From: a virus
Taxonomy: Duplodnaviria; Heunggongvirae; Uroviricota; Caudoviricetes
Virus record (IMG/VR): IMGVR_UViG_2703718802_000011
Length of the DNA stretch: 48,734 nucleotides
Direction: 5' to 3' (one strand)
Shown here: positions 12,890 through 39,783 of the stretch, piece after piece
Position numbering within the stretch: the first letter of the stretch is position 1
Layout of the letters: each line of letters begins with the position of its first letter
The notes under the pieces: generated by a model
Told to the model about the DNA's origin: nothing
Databases searched by the model: none
Seen by the model: only the letters and a program-made list of their open reading frames with translations
Made by a program: the position numbers and the translations under genes

Positions 12890-13981
12890 TTAGACTGTGT
12901 TAGGCATTTTTACGTCGTTAAACTTCTTTGTCGCCATTTTGCCGCCACTGGAAGCTTTTATAACGTTAGGCTTTGTATATTTATCCCAGTGAGGAGAATA
13001 AATCGGACAATCAAGTGTAATATATTGATCAAAAAGAAATCTAAAGTCTGTTTCATATATGTAATTAATTATATGTTCATACGGACCTAATTCGGCACCA
13101 TAAATTATCGTTTTTATTTTTCTTGTTAGATATATACTTGCCTCAACGAATTCAAGAAAAGCATTTTCTTCGTGAGCAAAAGTAATAATACTGTATTCAT
13201 TGATCGATATTTTATATCTTGCCCGCATAATACTGTCGATACAGAGCTTTTCAAAAATCATGGCTGTTTTGTTAGAAACAGAATTTATTATTCTAAGGTA
13301 CTCCAGTGGTTTATTTTCTGGGGCCAGTTTCCTTGGTTTTAATGCGTTATCTATATCTCTAAGTAATACTTCTATTTCTTCTAGGAACTTGCTGCTTGGT
13401 TCGAAGTTAGATAGGCTGTGTGGGGCTGAGTTGGGGTATATTTTTTTATAGAGCAAGTAAGGATTTGTAATTTTAACTTGATCGGTAGTTGCTATTTTTT
13501 CATTATCAATTTCCTTGGACGAAATGATGCTTCCATCTTTGTTAGATAGATTTAAAATTGTGAAAGTAGATAAGTGGTTTATTTTTTCGATGAAGTTTTT
13601 TTCATGAGCCAAATATCTGTCAACGGCATTTTTGCTATCAACTGCTTGTATTTGTGCTTCGGTTTGAATTGTGCGATGAATATTGTTTACTATCGATGCG
13701 AGAGGAACGGAACTTGCTAGTAGCAATAAAGGAAACTTGCTGATCTCATAAAATCTAAAATATCCGTGAGCAGTGAGGACAGGTGTTTTTCCACTCCATG
13801 CAAAGTAACCAAAGTAAAAAAATGAAAAAACAGGAAGTAAAATCGATAACCAAAATAATTTTTGGCGGTATAGATTTCTTTTGTCTAACTTGTACCATCT
13901 TCTCCAAATGGAAATGATTAAAATTAATATAATTATTGTTGCATAAATATAAATGTATATATAGTCAGGATATGTTTTCAT
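12890..13981 (-). CDS. Membrane protein (N-terminal transmembrane helices), AT-rich moron translationally coupled to int
   Basis: 363 aa; hydrophobic N-terminus ('IIILILIISIW', 'LFWLSILLPVFSFFYFGYFAW'); ATG overlaps the int stop (ATGA at 13978-13981); strongly AT-rich compared with neighbouring phage genes. Confidence 0.5.
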   Translation of the reverse strand: MKTYPDYIYIYIYATIIILILIISIWRRWYKLDKRNLYRQKLFWLSILLPVFSFFYFGYFAWSGKTPVLTAHGYFRFYEISKFPLLLLASSVPLASIVNNIHRTIQTEAQIQAVDSKNAVDRYLAHEKNFIEKINHLSTFTILNLSNKDGSIISSKEIDNEKIATTDQVKITNPYLLYKKIYPNSAPHSLSNFEPSSKFLEEIEVLLRDIDNALKPRKLAPENKPLEYLRIINSVSNKTAMIFEKLCIDSIMRARYKISINEYSIITFAHEENAFLEFVEASIYLTRKIKTIIYGAELGPYEHIINYIYETDFRFLFDQYITLDCPIYSPHWDKYTKPNVIKASSGGKMATKKFNDVKMPNTV

Positions 13982-15000
13982 ACGTGATTTATACTATTTA
14001 GTGGGTTTTTGGTTACTGCATCTTCAAGATGTTCAGGGGAAAAATGTGCATATACCATGGTCATCTTGATATCTGAGTGACCCAATATATCTCTCAATAC
14101 TAGGATATTTCCGCCGTTCATCATAAAATGGCTGGCGAATGTATGGCGCAACACGTGAGTGCATTGGCCATCAGGTAGTTCGATACCGGCCCGTTTTACT
14201 GCACGCTCAAAGGCTTTTCTGCATGGTGTGAATAACTTCCCTCTGTTTTTGGGTAGCTCGTTGTACAGATCCTGAGATATCGGTACGGTGCGGTTTTTTT
14301 TACCCTTTGTCTTTGTATAGGTAATCCGGTATTTCGATAGTTGATGTCCCTGCAGGTTTTCAGCTTCACTCCAACGTGCACCAGTTGCTAGGCATATTTT
14401 TGCAATCATCAGCAGACTGGGGCTTTGAGAATCAGCACAGGCATCTAGCAGACGTTTAATTTCTTCCGGAGTCAAGAACGCCAGTTCACCTTCAGTAATT
14501 TTAAATGTTGGAAGCCCGGCAAGAGGGTTGGGGGCTGACCAGTGGCCCAGCTTTTTCAGTGTACCAAAAACCGATGATAGGTTGCGTTGTTCAAGATTTA
14601 CCGTGCGGGGCTTAACGGGCGACATTAGCGTGCCATCTTCATTTCGCACTTCACCTTTTAGCCGTGCTTCGCGGTATTTCGTAAAGTCACCGGCAGTCAG
14701 CTCTGAAGCGATGGGATCGCCTAGACCATTACAGATAATTCTAAGTTTCGCCATGAGGCGCTTGGGGTCTGCGAGTGTTTGACCATATAGGGAATACCAC
14801 AGCTCAATTAATTCTGATAGGCGTCTGCGATCTTCCTTTTCCCCCAACCATGGTTTTTTGTTCACTTCTTCCATTGTGAAGCTTTCAAAAGCAATGGCTT
14901 CGCCTTTTGTAGCAAATTGCTTACGTACGCGCTTGCCATTGCGTCCATTGGGATAGCACTCACACAACCATTTACCGTTTGGCTGTTTTCTGACAGTCAT
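13978..15000 (-). CDS. int: P2/186-type tyrosine integrase
   Basis: 340 aa (P2 Int is about 337), 'MTVRKQPNGKW...' N-terminus, C-terminal 'HVLRHTFASHFMMNGGNILVLRDILGHSDIKMTMVYAH' tyrosine-recombinase catalytic region. Confidence 0.85.
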   Translation of the reverse strand: MTVRKQPNGKWLCECYPNGRNGKRVRKQFATKGEAIAFESFTMEEVNKKPWLGEKEDRRRLSELIELWYSLYGQTLADPKRLMAKLRIICNGLGDPIASELTAGDFTKYREARLKGEVRNEDGTLMSPVKPRTVNLEQRNLSSVFGTLKKLGHWSAPNPLAGLPTFKITEGELAFLTPEEIKRLLDACADSQSPSLLMIAKICLATGARWSEAENLQGHQLSKYRITYTKTKGKKNRTVPISQDLYNELPKNRGKLFTPCRKAFERAVKRAGIELPDGQCTHVLRHTFASHFMMNGGNILVLRDILGHSDIKMTMVYAHFSPEHLEDAVTKNPLNSINHV

Positions 15001-15002
15001 GT

Positions 15003-15635
15003 TTAGATACTCTTTATTACTTTGACTGCGCGCCCAATAATTTCCACATCATCAGCAGAACACTCGAAAGACGCTTCATCTTGATTTACTACAATCTTAT
15101 TGCCGGGAATCCGCATGATTTTTGCAATAATAATCATTCCATCAATATTGATTAGCCAGAATCCATTGCTGACTTGTTTAACTGATTTATCGATGAGATA
15201 ACAATCAGTTGGGGTTTCTAAGAACATCGATTCTTCATAATGTGCAGGTAATATGCTGTGGTCTAGGAAAATATCTTCATCAATACTGAGTTTTCCATTC
15301 TCTAAGGTTCCTTTAGGAATAGATGGAGTTATGAGTTTGGATAGTGGTTTAATTGCTTGTTTGTTCTCATTATGAGATCTTTTCTCAGGCTCACATCCTC
15401 CTTTCATGCTTCCCTGGCCTGTAGCTAACCAAAGCAACGAAACACCGGTTTCTAGTGCGCACTGAATTATCCAGTCAGCAGGAAAACTGTCGCGTAACAC
15501 TCTGTTTGCCATAGTGCTTTTTGAGACATTCAGGTGCTCGCTTAATGCCTGCTTAGTTGTGAATCCATAAGCCTCAAGCAGCCTCTCAATAGCTGCCTTG
15601 CCTCCCGTATCGGAACCCATTCTGATGTTTAACAT
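15003..15635 (-). CDS. cI: CI-like immunity repressor (HTH)
   Basis: Divergent from apl/cII; HTH-like 'TKQALSEHLNVSKSTMANRVL'; likely start at ATG 15633-15635 with a GGAG RBS (track ORF extends to 15683); size about 210 aa, similar to 186 CI. Confidence 0.6.
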   Translation of the reverse strand: MLNIRMGSDTGGKAAIERLLEAYGFTTKQALSEHLNVSKSTMANRVLRDSFPADWIIQCALETGVSLLWLATGQGSMKGGCEPEKRSHNENKQAIKPLSKLITPSIPKGTLENGKLSIDEDIFLDHSILPAHYEESMFLETPTDCYLIDKSVKQVSNGFWLINIDGMIIIAKIMRIPGNKIVVNQDEASFECSADDVEIIGRAVKVIKSI

Positions 15636-15756
15636 TGGTAATCTCCATTTGACAATCTTGAGTCGAGATCGTAATGTCTTCATGTCTCTTGATGTGAGAG
15701 TTTAAGAGACGGACTAAAACGAACTAACACGCACACAAAGTAAGAGATACTGCACT

Positions 15757-23109: not shown

Positions 23110-24078
23110 TTATTTATAATATGCTGACTTCAAAACCACTCGTCTTTCAACCTGCTGTGATAGCATTACCGCGTTAGTCCAATCTTTTGGATACCTTATT
23201 TCTTCTATAACACGAATATAAGCACATACTTTATTTTTTCCCTCTCCTTTGGCATAAGTAACCTCTAGATTATTAAATTTCAATAAGTGCTCTCTTCTTT
23301 GGTAAGTAAAACAGCCGTAATCACGGACATCAGAAGAAGTAATAGCATGAGTTGAAGGAAACCGAACTAGTAAATTTCTCAAGTAGGGAATAATGTCCAA
23401 ACTCGTTGCTTTGTTTTCTTCTCTGCGACTCTTTCTGAACATATGTCTCCAACCCAGCCGTGTAAGCTCGATTTTCCCAAGCACCGGAGATGTGATTTCT
23501 TTCTGTTCAGAATAACGTTTTTTAACAAACGCTCGCCGATTATTAAGTAGTGAGTTTCTTCTTCTTACATGGATTCCTTTTGCTCCAGTTTCACCTGCAC
23601 GTACCATGGACATACAGCGAGCCAGGTCAAACCGTGTAGCCGGAGTGATTAAGTGATATTCTCCATAAGTTTGGTTTTTAAGGGTAGTGTTTGGATGTAT
23701 ATAGGCCCAAAATGCTTTACGATTAGTTCTGTCAACCCAAACGACACATATATGGTGAGTTGTCCTTTTGGCTGCTTTTTTTGCGGCCGAATTTAATACA
23801 AAACCTTTCTCTAATAAATGACCATAAGTTGCCCCTGATTTAACTTGCGACAATATAAGCATTCTTTCTTTTGATGCCCATGGATGTTCGAAGGATAATA
23901 TTAAATCTATTTTTGAATTGTCGTCTTCCCTGGAACCCCAGTGCCCCTCTCCTCTACAAGCAAGAATGAATTGACTCATTGCATAAGATTCGGCGTCACT
24001 GCCGTTAACTGAGTTAAACTGTCTTGTTTCTAGCACAGTTGGTATTGGTCGTGATGCAAGTAAACTGAAAGATCCCAC
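23110..24078 (-). CDS. Hypothetical cargo protein in the A-Q hotspot
   Basis: 322-aa ORF on the opposite strand to flanking phage genes, AT-rich, with no P2/186 counterpart at this position. Confidence 0.5.
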   Translation of the reverse strand: MGSFSLLASRPIPTVLETRQFNSVNGSDAESYAMSQFILACRGEGHWGSREDDNSKIDLILSFEHPWASKERMLILSQVKSGATYGHLLEKGFVLNSAAKKAAKRTTHHICVVWVDRTNRKAFWAYIHPNTTLKNQTYGEYHLITPATRFDLARCMSMVRAGETGAKGIHVRRRNSLLNNRRAFVKKRYSEQKEITSPVLGKIELTRLGWRHMFRKSRREENKATSLDIIPYLRNLLVRFPSTHAITSSDVRDYGCFTYQRREHLLKFNNLEVTYAKGEGKNKVCAYIRVIEEIRYPKDWTNAVMLSQQVERRVVLKSAYYK

Positions 24079-24686: not shown

Positions 24687-25601
24687 ATGCCATACCAATT
24701 GGTAGAGCTTAGCCCCGTAGCTAACGATCTTGAACAGTTAGGAACCAAAGAGAAGTTTTGGTTCTATTTCTCCGATGACACTGTAAATTTGCAGTTGTTT
24801 AAGTACTCTAGGCCAGGTACTGGCGAGCATTGGTCTGAAAAGTGTGCTGCTGAGTTATGTCATTTGCTTAACATTCCACATGCTAGCTATGATTTGGCGC
24901 GATACAATGGTCGATTCGGTGTGGTGACTCAGAATATCATTCCATCTGGTTTCCGGATGGTAATGGGAAATGAAGTGCTTCACAGTTCGACATTCGATTA
25001 TCCTGGGCCTTTACAAGCCGGGGAAAAGCCGGTAAGGGTCAGAGAACACACTGTCACAAGGGTATTGGGTTGTTTGGATAGGGAATCTATCAAGCCTCCT
25101 CCGAGTGTATATGATCTAACCGGGCTAAATGCAGCAGATGTATTTTGTGGATATTTGATGCTCGATGCACTTGTGAGTAATCAAGATCGCCATCATGAAA
25201 ATTGGGCGATCATGCTTAACAATGAAACTGGTGAGCAGTTTTTGTGTCCAACATACGATCATGCCGCTAGTTTAGGAAGGGAGATGTTAGATGATGAGCG
25301 TAACGAACGGCTTAATACTAAAGATAAAAATCGACAAATCCCATGTTTTGTAAGAAAAGCTCGCTCTGAGCTATTCAAAGCAAAAACTGATAAAAAGCCC
25401 TTGCTGACCGTTGAAGCATTTCAACATGCAGTTGAAGGGAGAGTTGCCGCTCGCGACCATTGGTTAGGTAAGTTGAGCGTTTTAACAGAAGATTCCATTA
25501 CAGATGTGTTTAACCAAGTGCCTTCATCGTGTATATCCGACAGTGCACGTAGATTTGCAACGTTAATGGTAATGGAAAATCGCAGAAGGTTACTAGAATG
25601 A
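24687..25601 (+). CDS. HipA-like (HipT-type) serine/threonine kinase domain protein
   Basis: 304 aa; 'LGTKEKFWF' (HipA P-loop-like) near the N-terminus, catalytic 'SNQDRHHENWA' (D-x-H-x2-N, about nt 25185) and 'CPTYDHAASLG' (HipA D332-region-like). Confidence 0.65.
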   Translation: MPYQLVELSPVANDLEQLGTKEKFWFYFSDDTVNLQLFKYSRPGTGEHWSEKCAAELCHLLNIPHASYDLARYNGRFGVVTQNIIPSGFRMVMGNEVLHSSTFDYPGPLQAGEKPVRVREHTVTRVLGCLDRESIKPPPSVYDLTGLNAADVFCGYLMLDALVSNQDRHHENWAIMLNNETGEQFLCPTYDHAASLGREMLDDERNERLNTKDKNRQIPCFVRKARSELFKAKTDKKPLLTVEAFQHAVEGRVAARDHWLGKLSVLTEDSITDVFNQVPSSCISDSARRFATLMVMENRRRLLE

Positions 25602-26338
25602 CTAATACAAACTCCGTTTACGTCGCATGGCAGGCACCAGATACCAGAGACTGGCATGTTGTTGGTAACTTGCAAGAGCGCAAATCGGGGTATGTTTTCA
25701 GGTATACCAAAGGTGCTCTTAAATCTACTAAATTTACAAAGTTTAGCGGCATGAGTGATGTTCGTGAAACTTATGTTTCGGAAGAATTGTTTCCTCTTTT
25801 TAAAAATCGCCTTTTATCACCGAGACGTCCAGAGTATCCGAGTTTCATTAAATGGCTTGGATTTGAAGAAGATAAGGTAAATCCTATCGATATTCTTGCT
25901 CGCTCGGGAGGCTTACGAAGCACTGATCAGCTGCAGATTTTCAAAAAAATTGATGTTGATTCTGATGGTAACTTTGAGCATTTTTTCTTCTTACATGGAC
26001 TTGGTTACTTAAATAGCTTAGCTAATGCTCGTGTATCTGAATTGAAACCGGGGCAAATTTTGCGTCTTTGCTTGGATCTTCAAAATGAATACGATGGGGA
26101 TGCTGTTGTCGTTCGTGCAGATAAACCAGCTGAAATCGTTGGTTACTGCCCTAGGTATTTAAGTAATGATATCAAGAAGATGTTATTGGATGATCCAAAA
26201 TCAATCACTTTAACGGTCGAAAAGATTAGCGATGATGCTCCTCATAACTATCGGTTATTATGTAAATTATCAGGAGTACTAAGCCAAGCCTGTCAATCGA
26301 CGCTGATTCCTCAGGATGAGTTTGAACCTATTGAGTAA
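25598..26338 (+). CDS. HipA N-terminal (HipS-like) domain fused to a HIRAN-like domain
   Basis: ATG overlaps the kinase stop (ATGA). N-terminus 'VVGNLQERKSGYVFRY...EELFPLFKNRLLSPRR...NPIDILARSGGLRS' resembles the HipA N-subdomain; C-terminus 'ILRLCLDLQNEYDGDAVVVRADKPAEIVGYCPRYLS' resembles the HIRAN consensus. Confidence 0.5.
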   Translation: MTNTNSVYVAWQAPDTRDWHVVGNLQERKSGYVFRYTKGALKSTKFTKFSGMSDVRETYVSEELFPLFKNRLLSPRRPEYPSFIKWLGFEEDKVNPIDILARSGGLRSTDQLQIFKKIDVDSDGNFEHFFFLHGLGYLNSLANARVSELKPGQILRLCLDLQNEYDGDAVVVRADKPAEIVGYCPRYLSNDIKKMLLDDPKSITLTVEKISDDAPHNYRLLCKLSGVLSQACQSTLIPQDEFEPIE

Positions 26339-37024: not shown

Positions 37025-37622
37025 TCTGCTGCCATCGGGGTCAACTTCACTGGAGCGCCGACTGGCGCAGACCTGTAGCGGGATTTCTGATCTGCAGGTG
37101 CCGCTGCGTGACTTGTGGAATCCGGCTACCTGCCCGGTCAGCTTCCTGCCTTATCTCGCCTGGGCGTTCTCTGTGGATCGCTGGGACGAAGGCTGGACAG
37201 AAAGCGTCAAGCGCCAGGTGGTGAAGGATGCTTTTTATATTCATCAGCATAAAGGGACCACCAGTGCCGTGCGGCGGGTGGTGGAGCCGTTCGGCTTTCT
37301 GATCCGCATTATTGAGTGGTGGCAGACCGGAGAGGCACCGGGCACGTTTCGTCTGGATATCGGCGTGCAGGACCAGGGCATCACTGAAGATACCTATCTG
37401 GAACTTGAGCGGCTGATAAGCGATGCCAAACCATGTAGCCGTCACATGATCGGCATGTCCATCAATCTGCAGACCAGCGGTCCGCATTGGGTGGGGGCCG
37501 CCAGCTATCTTGGCGAAGAAATCACGATCTATCCGTATATCAACGAAACAATTATTTCCGGCGGCACCGCGCATGAAGGTGGGGCGGTCCATGTTATTGA
37601 CACAATGAGAGTGAATCCATGA
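37017..37622 (+). CDS. I: Baseplate protein I
   Basis: 201 aa, overlaps the J stop; conserved position. Confidence 0.7.
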   Translation: MNSLLPSGSTSLERRLAQTCSGISDLQVPLRDLWNPATCPVSFLPYLAWAFSVDRWDEGWTESVKRQVVKDAFYIHQHKGTTSAVRRVVEPFGFLIRIIEWWQTGEAPGTFRLDIGVQDQGITEDTYLELERLISDAKPCSRHMIGMSINLQTSGPHWVGAASYLGEEITIYPYINETIISGGTAHEGGAVHVIDTMRVNP

Positions 37623-39349
37623 GCACAAAATTTTATACCCTGCTGACGGATATTGGCGCGGCGAAACTTGCCAGCGCCGCCGCGCTCGGTGTGCCTTTAA
37701 AAATTACCCATATGGCGGTCGGCGATGGCGGCGGAACATTGCCAACGCCGGACGCAAAGCAGACAGCATTGGTAAATGAGAAACGCCGGGCTGCGCTGAA
37801 TATGCTCTATATCGACCCGCAGAACAGCAGCCAGATTATTGCCGAACAGGTGATCCCAGAAAACGAGGGCGGTTGGTGGATACGTGAAGTGGGCCTGTTT
37901 GATGAGTCCGGGGCATTGATTGCCGTGGGCAACTGCCCGGAAAGCTATAAGCCACAACTGGCTGAAGGCAGCGGGCGCACCCAGACCGTGCGCATGGTGC
38001 TGATTACCAGCAGTACGGACAATATCACCCTGAAAATCGACCCTGCTGTCGTGCTGGCAACCCGCCATTATGTAGATCAACAAATAGAAATTCATGAGCA
38101 ATCGCGCCGCCATCCTTCTGCGTCTTTGACAGAAAAGGGATTTGTACGTCTGTATAGCGGTGTGGAAAGCAATGATGAAACAGTCGCTGCAACGCCAAAA
38201 GCAGTGAAAATAGCGATGGATAATGCCAGCGCCAGACTGGCAAAAGACCGCAATGGTTCTGATATTCCCAATCCGGCACTGTTTGTTCAGAATCTGGGAT
38301 TGAAAACGACTGTTGATAAAGCTGCATCAGCGATTCAGCCAGGAGATTATGGAATTGGCCTGGCTTATCTGAAAACCATGGGAACCAAATCGCAATTTTT
38401 TGCTTATGGTACAGCTGTCGGCTATCCAGAAGTGCCAACACATGGTGCTGGTTTCCAGGCCTGTTACAACGACAATCGACGTGCACAAATTTATGTCGCT
38501 AATGATGGCAAGATGTACTGTCGATTCAGCATGTTATCGAAAATTGCCGATGATGAAACACCGTGGAATCAGGTGTTCACCAGTGCACATTATCCAGAAG
38601 CATCAGTGAGTGTTAAAGGAATGGTGCAACTGGGGAACGATGTAAACAGCGTGTCAGAAAATGTTGCGGCGACATTGAAAGCGGTAAAAATTGCGATGGA
38701 CAACGCCAGTGCGAGACTGGCAAAGGACCGCAATGGTGCTGATATTCCTGACCCGACTTTGTTTATTCAGAATCTGGGACTTAAACCGACGGTTGATAAG
38801 GCTGAAAGTGCTCTGCAACAGGGAGCATACGGAATCGGTAGCAATAATAACTACGAAATGGGTGAGGTTTCACAGTTTCTTGCATATTCAGGTAATGCAG
38901 ATGAAGTGCCATCGAATGGTGCAGGTTTTCAGGCTGCGTATAACAAGAACAGACGCGCGCAGATTTTCATCACCGGAGCAGGGGAAATGTATCACCGTTT
39001 CAGCGGCTCTGATACGGTTAAAGACAATACAACACCATGGCGTCGGGGTGTTTGTGAAGATGAATTTTCATTTGGCAGCAATTATCACCGAATAACTGGC
39101 GGTGTGCTGAAGCAGTTTTTTAACAGTTATTTTTCCGGGGCAACTGGTGTGGTGAATAAAGAGTATCAGGTGAATTTTCCGACACCATTTGCCCGTCAGT
39201 GCTGGTACGTGATCCCCGTTTTCCGTTCGCCACACGGTGGGAGTGTTGAGGGTGTCGCCATTACAGCTATTACTGCAACTGGCTTTACTCTGAGCATCAC
39301 CGGAGATAACGGTGGATGGAATATTGGGTTTATTGCGGAGGGGGTCTGA
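37619..39349 (+). CDS. H: Tail fiber protein H, with an internal duplicated module
   Basis: 576 aa; conserved N-terminus; contains two diverged copies of an approximately 160-aa module. Confidence 0.8.
   Translation: MSTKFYTLLTDIGAAKLASAAALGVPLKITHMAVGDGGGTLPTPDAKQTALVNEKRRAALNMLYIDPQNSSQIIAEQVIPENEGGWWIREVGLFDESGALIAVGNCPESYKPQLAEGSGRTQTVRMVLITSSTDNITLKIDPAVVLATRHYVDQQIEIHEQSRRHPSASLTEKGFVRLYSGVESNDETVAATPKAVKIAMDNASARLAKDRNGSDIPNPALFVQNLGLKTTVDKAASAIQPGDYGIGLAYLKTMGTKSQFFAYGTAVGYPEVPTHGAGFQACYNDNRRAQIYVANDGKMYCRFSMLSKIADDETPWNQVFTSAHYPEASVSVKGMVQLGNDVNSVSENVAATLKAVKIAMDNASARLAKDRNGADIPDPTLFIQNLGLKPTVDKAESALQQGAYGIGSNNNYEMGEVSQFLAYSGNADEVPSNGAGFQAAYNKNRRAQIFITGAGEMYHRFSGSDTVKDNTTPWRRGVCEDEFSFGSNYHRITGGVLKQFFNSYFSGATGVVNKEYQVNFPTPFARQCWYVIPVFRSPHGGSVEGVAITAITATGFTLSITGDNGGWNIGFIAEGV
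38135..39060 (+). repeat. Internal tandem duplication (2 x about 480 nt, diverged) within tail fiber gene H
   Basis: Protein copies '..VAATPKAVKIAMDNASARLAKDRNGSDIPNPALFVQNLGLKTTVDKA..GAGFQACYNDNRRAQIYV' and '..VAATLKAVKIAMDNASARLAKDRNGADIPDPTLFIQNLGLKPTVDKA..GAGFQAAYNKNRRAQIFI' at a 160-aa offset. Confidence 0.75.
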
Positions 39350-39783
39350 TGAGTTATTTTTACAGTCCATCAAGAAATGCATTTTATAACAGTGAACTGA
39401 AATCTGATTATTACGATGCTCTCGATGCGTGGCCGGATGACTGTATTGAGGTAAGTGATGCAGTCTATCAGGAGTTTTATCTTGGTTATCGGGAAGGGTA
39501 CAAAATGGTTGCAGGCACTGATAACCAGCCATCATGGGAAGAACGTCCACCATTGACCCATGAGGAACAGGTGGAACAGGCAGAAATGATGAAACAGATG
39601 CGCATTAATGAGGCTAACAACCTGATTAATGAAAAACAATGGCCATCAAAATTACAGCTTGGCAGGCTGAACGAAATGGAGACAACCAGATTTAATGCGA
39701 TGCTGGATTATCTTGAGTTACTTGAAAATATTAATGTAAGTGATGCCCCGGATATAGTCTGGCCTTTATCACCAGAAGTCTGA
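39349..39783 (+). CDS. G: Tail fiber assembly protein G
   Basis: ATG 39349 overlaps the H stop (TGATG); 144 aa. Confidence 0.7.
   Translation: MSYFYSPSRNAFYNSELKSDYYDALDAWPDDCIEVSDAVYQEFYLGYREGYKMVAGTDNQPSWEERPPLTHEEQVEQAEMMKQMRINEANNLINEKQWPSKLQLGRLNEMETTRFNAMLDYLELLENINVSDAPDIVWPLSPEV

Follow-up and report, generated by a model that had tools for sequence, protein, structure and literature searches.

The analysed window, a stretch of 48,734 nucleotides, is a piece of Escherichia coli chromosome that carries a P2-like prophage. At the left end of the prophage lie the integrase gene (13978-15000) and a gene for a CI repressor (15003-15683; Pfam Phage_CI_repr and Phage_CI_C), both on the minus strand within 13978-15683, and the late genes extend to approximately 47 kb. 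One of these is an H-type tail fibre gene on the plus strand (37619-39349), an ORF of 576 codons plus stop, the product of which matches PHROG family phrog_988, labelled 'tail protein', with an E-value of 4e-163. In the 99.7%-identical sequence NZ_AP027258 (E. coli JNE151685), the gene is annotated 'phage tail-collar fiber domain-containing protein'. It is preceded by J-like and P2 I-like baseplate genes and followed by a P2 G-like gene for a tail fibre assembly chaperone, or Tfa (39349-39783, plus strand; Pfam PF02413 Caudo_TAP, E 5e-26; 'tail fiber assembly protein' in NZ_AP027258), which overlaps the stop codon of the fibre gene by 1 nt, and then by the sheath gene. The order J - I - fibre - Tfa - sheath, by which a P2 gpH-type fibre is recognised, is thus found both in the ORFs of the window and in the annotation of NZ_AP027258. 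The fibre shares with P2 gpH its gene position (J-I-H-G-FI), a homologous N-terminal domain and the G-like chaperone; it is a homologue of P2 H, and the label 'tail fibre gene H' given in the original prediction is correct in that sense.

Two other regions of the prophage are worth recording. In the P2 cargo hotspot, which separates replication gene A from the portal gene, lie two overlapping plus-strand ORFs (24687-26338; 304 and 246 aa). They match PDC-M03, a candidate defence system of PADLOC (M03A, E 2e-122; M03B, E 3e-93), and Pfam reports a HIRAN domain and a weak match to HipA_C in them. The same hotspot also holds a minus-strand ORF of 322 aa (23110-24078) with no match in Pfam or PADLOC. 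The JNE151685 prophage in NZ_AP027258 contains an additional hypothetical gene of 1206 nt between its S-like and V-like tail genes (L001 8132-9337, minus strand); this gene is absent from the window, the two prophages being otherwise near-identical.

The fibre protein is composed of an N-terminal domain, two modules of the same make-up and a C-terminal tip domain. The N-terminal domain, a baseplate-attachment (tail-collar) domain, occupies residues 1-149 (37619-38065) and matches PF12571 (Phage_tail_fib) over positions 1-149 of the 150 in the profile with an E-value of 7e-65. The modules, residues 162-321 (38102-38581) and 322-480 (38582-39058), stand at an exact offset of 160 codons. Each consists of a Phage_fiber_2 repeat (R), a junction or linker (J) and a domain which we term the knob (K), so that the domain order is N-terminal domain - R1 J1 K1 - R2 J2 K2 - tip domain, followed by the Tfa gene. 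R1 spans residues 162-209 (38102-38245), with PF03406 matching at 169-209, and R2 spans residues 322-369 (38582-38725), with a second PF03406 stretch at about 329-369. The junctions, J1 at residues 210-236 (38246-38326; DRNGSDIPNPALFVQNLGLKTTVDKAA) and J2 at residues 370-396 (38726-38806), conform to the 27-aa consensus DRNGxDIPxPxLFxQNLGLKxTVDKA. K1 corresponds to residues 237-321 (38327-38581) and K2 to residues 397-480 (38807-39058). The tip domain (residues 481-576; 39059-39346) resembles PF21882 (Gp53-like_C) over residues 508-570, a weak match (E 1.5e-4) of 22.7 bits, which is below the 24.9-bit cut-off. Pfam finds nothing in the rest of the fibre, the knobs included. The whole protein matches phrog_988 end to end, with K1 and K2 at separate regions of the profile (positions 299-378 and 435-527). 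This family is an automatic cluster without a domain description; since it holds both knobs, the two-knob architecture is already represented in phage databases.

The first line of evidence concerning the repeat is the self-alignment of the protein. Residues 162-318 align with residues 322-476 with a Smith-Waterman score of 447, which is approximately 70 standard deviations above the scores of 300 shuffled sequences (31.6 +/- 5.8, maximum 60); chance similarity between the copies is therefore rejected. At the nucleotide level, a direct repeat of 239 nt (38120-38358 and 38600-38838) is 70% identical, with a spacing of 480 nt, i.e., exactly 160 codons. Over the 159 aligned codons, the copies share 59% of amino acids, 60% of nucleotides and 42% of third codon positions. 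The proposal of a module of about 160 aa that is present twice in the fibre gene thus holds, and the interval originally proposed for it, 38135-39060, starts within about 30 nt, and ends within 2 nt, of the module limits. The long identical stretches cited in its favour, namely KAVKIAMDNASARLAKDRNG, FxQNLGLKxTVDKA and GAGFQAxYNxNRRAQI, are indeed present in both copies. Two of the three, however, lie in the junction, which is common to 186 K, and the third is the signature motif of the knob family. This circumstance might suggest that the similarity consists of shared short motifs only, with no true repeated domain, as the most conspicuous identical strings fall in the widely shared junction. 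Such a reading is refuted: the alignment goes beyond short motifs and spans the entire 85-aa knob at 49% identity, the score stands far outside the shuffled distribution, and both knobs match a single HMM built from 69 knob sequences, with E-values of 2e-35 for K1 (residues 237-323) and 3e-37 for K2.

Definition of this family of approximately 85-aa knobs, for which Pfam has no model, is another result of the analysis. A profile of the junction and knob was searched against 1.84 billion cluster representatives (50% identity) and matched 127 clusters, 71 of which carry the knob, 3 of them twice. The alignment of knobs across clusters delineates a well-conserved domain with the motif G.G...MG..SQF.AY...EVP.NGAGFQ..Y..NRRAQ...G..Y.RFS....D..TPW. 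Among isolated phages, members of the family occur in unrelated types of fibres, including the side tail fibre (Stf) of HK633, the L-shaped fibre (Ltf) of BF23, and fibres of CAjan, Proteus phage Privateer and Hafnia phage yong1. Searches with the knob HMM find no knob of this family in P2 H, 186 K or Mu S. P2 H (669 aa), like the present fibre, has two Phage_fiber_2 repeats, seen in tandem in the P2 sequence and detected here by Pfam; unlike the present fibre, it has a different distal region, and its best match to the knob HMM is a fragment with an E-value of 1e-3. For this reason P2 H and 186 K, proposed as places to look for single-copy versions of the module, are not such versions, as both are without the knob altogether. 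Single-copy versions do exist elsewhere, in the two variant genes described below.

A structure prediction of the kind called for in the original prediction was carried out for module 2. The AlphaFold2 model of the monomer, based on an alignment of 65 sequences, has pLDDT values of 87-97 over the knob, for which it predicts five β-strands (module residues 98-102, 113-121, 124-131, 136-141 and 154-156); the R and J parts are predicted to be helical with lower confidence. A model of the whole 576-aa protein computed without an alignment reached a pLDDT of 29.5. In size and strand number, the modelled domain corresponds to the knobs of pyocin fibres, which are antiparallel sheets of 5-6 strands in about 85 residues. 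The top Foldseek matches in the PDB are the fibres of R1 and R2 pyocins (6CL5 and 6CL6); these are weak (E about 0.2), with moderate scores. The other neighbours include 5EFV, 5M9F and T4 gp34, the same set that was published as structural neighbours of the pyocin knobs (PMC6116203), and structural matches in BFVD are to tail fibres too. A profile of the 65 knob sequences run against the sequences in the PDB returned only noise, with E-values of at least 0.19. Judged from the predicted model, any likeness to solved knobs would therefore be at the level of the fold only, and the family has no solved sequence relative.

The closest known parallel is nevertheless provided by the R-type pyocins of Pseudomonas aeruginosa (PA0620; 6CL5, 6CL6 and 6CU2). 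The R1 and R2 pyocin fibres contain two tandem Knob domains made of 5-6-stranded sheets, which are 20% identical and have been attributed to gene duplication; binding is likely to occur at Knob2 and the C-terminal domain (Buth et al. 2018, PMC6116203). Both these and the present protein are fibres of P2-related contractile tails in which tandem knobs of about 85 aa are followed by a distal binding domain and which are encoded together with a chaperone. There is no detectable sequence similarity between the two, and the two knobs of the present fibre are 49% identical, as opposed to 20% in the pyocin. The spacing of the knobs differs as well, being a full Phage_fiber_2 repeat plus a Mu-type junction here and a single helix-plus-turn in the pyocin. 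Finally, the present fibre has neither the long iron-binding shaft nor the lectin foot of the pyocin; its tip is a small, putatively gp53-like domain. By analogy with the pyocin structures, in which the knobs are trimeric and bury their β-sheets at the three-fold interface, each knob would form a three-fold globular bead on the fibre axis of a trimer.

The junction deserves separate consideration. The segment formed by the end of R and the junction has homologues in residues 111-191 of Mu S (PDB 8JU3/5YVQ; E 7e-24) and in the corresponding part of 186 K; the R and J parts of each module are 65-67% identical at the protein level to the segment that ends the constant part of Mu S (gp49) and of 186 K. 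In the record of phage Mu, the boundary of the G segment, where gix lies, falls at LFIQN|LGL within TTATCCAAAACCTCGGTTTACAGGAA, and in the record of phage 186 the DNA of K at the junction is described as a 'Mu-like inversion crossover site'. The cryo-EM paper on Mu does not describe the junction segment. The present gene has kept the gix-homologous coding sequence in both copies of the junction. The longest exact match between the copies, the 14-mer TTCAGAATCTGGGA, is found at the position homologous to the G-segment boundary, at 38286-38299 in J1 and 38766-38779 in J2. Mu and 186 each have a single junction and lack this type of knob; the present fibre has two junctions in direct orientation. 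A Mu- or P1-type invertible segment, served by a recombinase such as Gin or Cin, was considered and rejected. The 14-mer occurs only twice in the window, both times on the plus strand, with no inverted copy, and Tfa follows directly and then the sheath gene, which leaves no room for such a segment; nothing here can therefore invert. The crossover-site homologue is a relic and not a switch, homologous at the level of coding sequence only. Conservation of the junctions is evident from the 135-nt segments that begin at KAVK, which are 81% identical in nucleotides between J1 and J2 and 78% identical between each of them and the 186 junction. Third-position identity between the modules reaches 60-80% only in J and is 20-50% across R and K.

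These values bear directly on the age of the two copies. K1 and K2 are 49% identical over the knob proper, and K2 is 50% identical to the knobs of unrelated fibres (P0125, P0127 and P0128). In a neighbour-joining tree, a clade of K1 and K2 appears in 139 of 500 bootstrap replicates (28%). Because the knobs are only 49% identical and third positions are near saturation, a recent duplication within the gene is unsupported; the conspicuous identical strings, being a junction shared across phages and a family signature, are no trace of such an event. The interpretation in the original prediction is therefore partly supported: the module is present twice, but the data do not establish that it was duplicated inside this gene, and they exclude a recent event of that kind. 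The copies were further proposed to be a substrate for recombination. RecA-dependent recombination usually needs about 20-30 bp of identity. The two copies are nowhere identical over more than 14 nt and so are poorly suited to homologous recombination, but one natural variant does resemble the product of recombination between them.

This variant is a one-knob gene (P0123) of 416 aa, i.e., 576 minus 160, carried by a 186/Midge-like phage (L004). A block of 674 nt in this gene equals window positions 38189-38268 joined to 38749-39342 with 2 mismatches (99.7% identical), and thus matches an exact, in-frame deletion of 480 nt from the present gene. Compared in the register of copy 1, L004 has no mismatches over 38189-38268, and mismatches start at 38269; in the register of copy 2, there are 9 mismatches within 38683-38738 and then 2 within 38739-39342. 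The switch from copy 1 to copy 2 falls on a 10-nt microhomology, CTGATATTCC, located at 38259-38268 in J1 and 38739-38748 in J2, both on the plus strand. The block includes the tip domain, which is 99.7% identical in the two genes, and is flanked by sequence of about 78% identity upstream and about 75% in Tfa. As the block is 99.7% identical while the divergence of K1 and K2 is saturated, the one-knob form is not the ancestor that preceded a duplication. We favour the view that it arose recently by deletion and was afterwards transferred to another phage, which explains it in a single step, with the direction set by parsimony only; or else the L004 gene may represent the recipient that acquired a foreign K1 segment. 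Its sequence suggests that a crossover at the level of microhomology happened at least once.

The L004 gene could also be invoked for a quite different history, in which a recent duplication in place created an unstable direct repeat that toggles fibre length, as a precise deletion product is what such a repeat would yield. We regard this as very improbable. The copies retain 60% nucleotide identity and 42% identity at third positions, their longest exact match is under the length that RecA usually needs, and the region containing both modules is 97-100% conserved across two backbones. Nor does the population provide alleles in transition. Of 5426 complete E. coli genomes, 48 contain knob 1, at 66 places, and the same numbers apply to knob 2 with the C-terminus; all listed accessions are shared by the two sets, a correspondence at the level of accession and not place by place. 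The genomes being the same 48, no allele with knob 1 only or knob 2 only is found among complete E. coli genomes. In some of these genomes there are two or three copies of the two-knob cassette, each presumably in a P2-like prophage of its own. A search for full-length homologues was dominated by near-identical 576-aa proteins of E. coli and revealed no architectural diversity, which came to light in the search of 50%-identity representatives with junction and knob.

Three further comparisons locate the points at which the gene has been exchanged. First, 40 of 118 full-length relatives combine an N-terminal domain only 68% identical to that of the present gene with 97-100% identity over residues 162-576, which indicates that the two-knob cassette moves as a unit between backbones. 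Second, in megablast searches, isolated phages, including Cartapus, Klebsiella phage KP12 and 4LV2017, match the first 459 nt of the gene only (37619-38077; 96-97% identity). The N-terminal domain is thus the only part with more than 95% nucleotide identity to isolated phages; no sequenced phage isolate carries the distal cassette, and the N-terminal domain ends at a mosaic boundary. This boundary also divides the two backbone types of E. coli and is seen in L004. Third, the other single-copy version, found in E. coli (allele P0247, with fragment P0122/L005), follows the present gene at 97.5% identity up to about position 38688, inside R2, beyond which it continues into an unrelated, glycine-rich distal region (LTALAGL...LPYFTG).

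An out-of-frame ORF of 134 aa is found inside the fibre gene (38691-39095, +1 frame). A naturally frameshifted variant of 491 aa (P0121) reads this ORF once knob 2 has begun; the variant is presumably a pseudogene.

Taken as a whole, the gene probably encodes a mosaic fibre with two old paralogous knob modules. The protein would form a P2-type trimeric fibre, the shaft of which would contain the two modules in series, each made of a Phage_fiber_2 repeat, a short, mainly helical junction and a five-stranded β-knob of about 85 residues. Both knobs would belong to a single family whose members are shuffled between enterobacterial tail fibres, and their divergence would be ancient. As for the origin of the tandem, an ancient duplication of the repeat-junction-knob unit within this gene lineage, with the junction kept alike by constraint at the protein level or by occasional gene conversion, is possible though in our estimate rather unlikely. 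It would account for the exact 160-codon offset and the identical architecture of the modules, it agrees with the nominal sister position of K1 and K2 in the neighbour-joining tree, and it has a precedent in Knob1 and Knob2 of the R2 pyocin, which were attributed to gene duplication (PMC6116203). The bootstrap value for that position is, however, 28%, and K2 is as close to the knobs of unrelated fibres as it is to K1. Moreover, the two junctions resemble the 186 junction almost as much as they resemble each other, and each module is known without the other from other genes, the breakpoints coinciding exactly with the repeat and junction. We therefore place somewhat ahead of it, within the same overall picture, a stacking of the modules by recombination, in which the tandem would have arisen by recombination at the conserved repeat or junction between two one-knob fibre genes.

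In the overall picture, the junctions would still serve as points of exchange, as the swapping of the cassette between backbones, the fusion of module 1 to another distal part in P0247 and the 480-nt deletion product in L004 suggest. Homology suggests that the trimer is attached to the baseplate through its N-terminal domain and that Tfa helps the C-terminus to fold. If the R-type pyocin fibres are a guide, the second module would lengthen the fibre by one helix-plus-knob unit, and the extra module may add a second, surface-exposed site for saccharide binding proximal to the tip. A more far-reaching idea, which we put forward only tentatively and consider rather unlikely, is that the Mu-type junction acts as a portable, in-register 'splice point' at which junction-knob-repeat blocks of exactly 160 codons are gained and lost, so that the length of the fibre and the number of its sugar-binding knobs would be tuned stepwise. 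L004 would then be one such step caught in the act, and K1 a functional second receptor-binding site and not a spacer.

The stacking of knob modules is an instance of ordinary tail-fibre modularity, already known from R-type pyocin fibres, and the understanding of tail-fibre evolution is unchanged by this finding. For phage engineering, the junction (KAVKIAMDNAxARLAKDRNGxDIP...), together with the one-knob, two-knob and alternative-tip variants, marks fusion points that are tolerated in P2-type fibres. For the biology of these fibres, the gene offers a clean natural example of the in-frame gain or loss of an entire structural module by a tail fibre, with a conserved linker as the site of the change.
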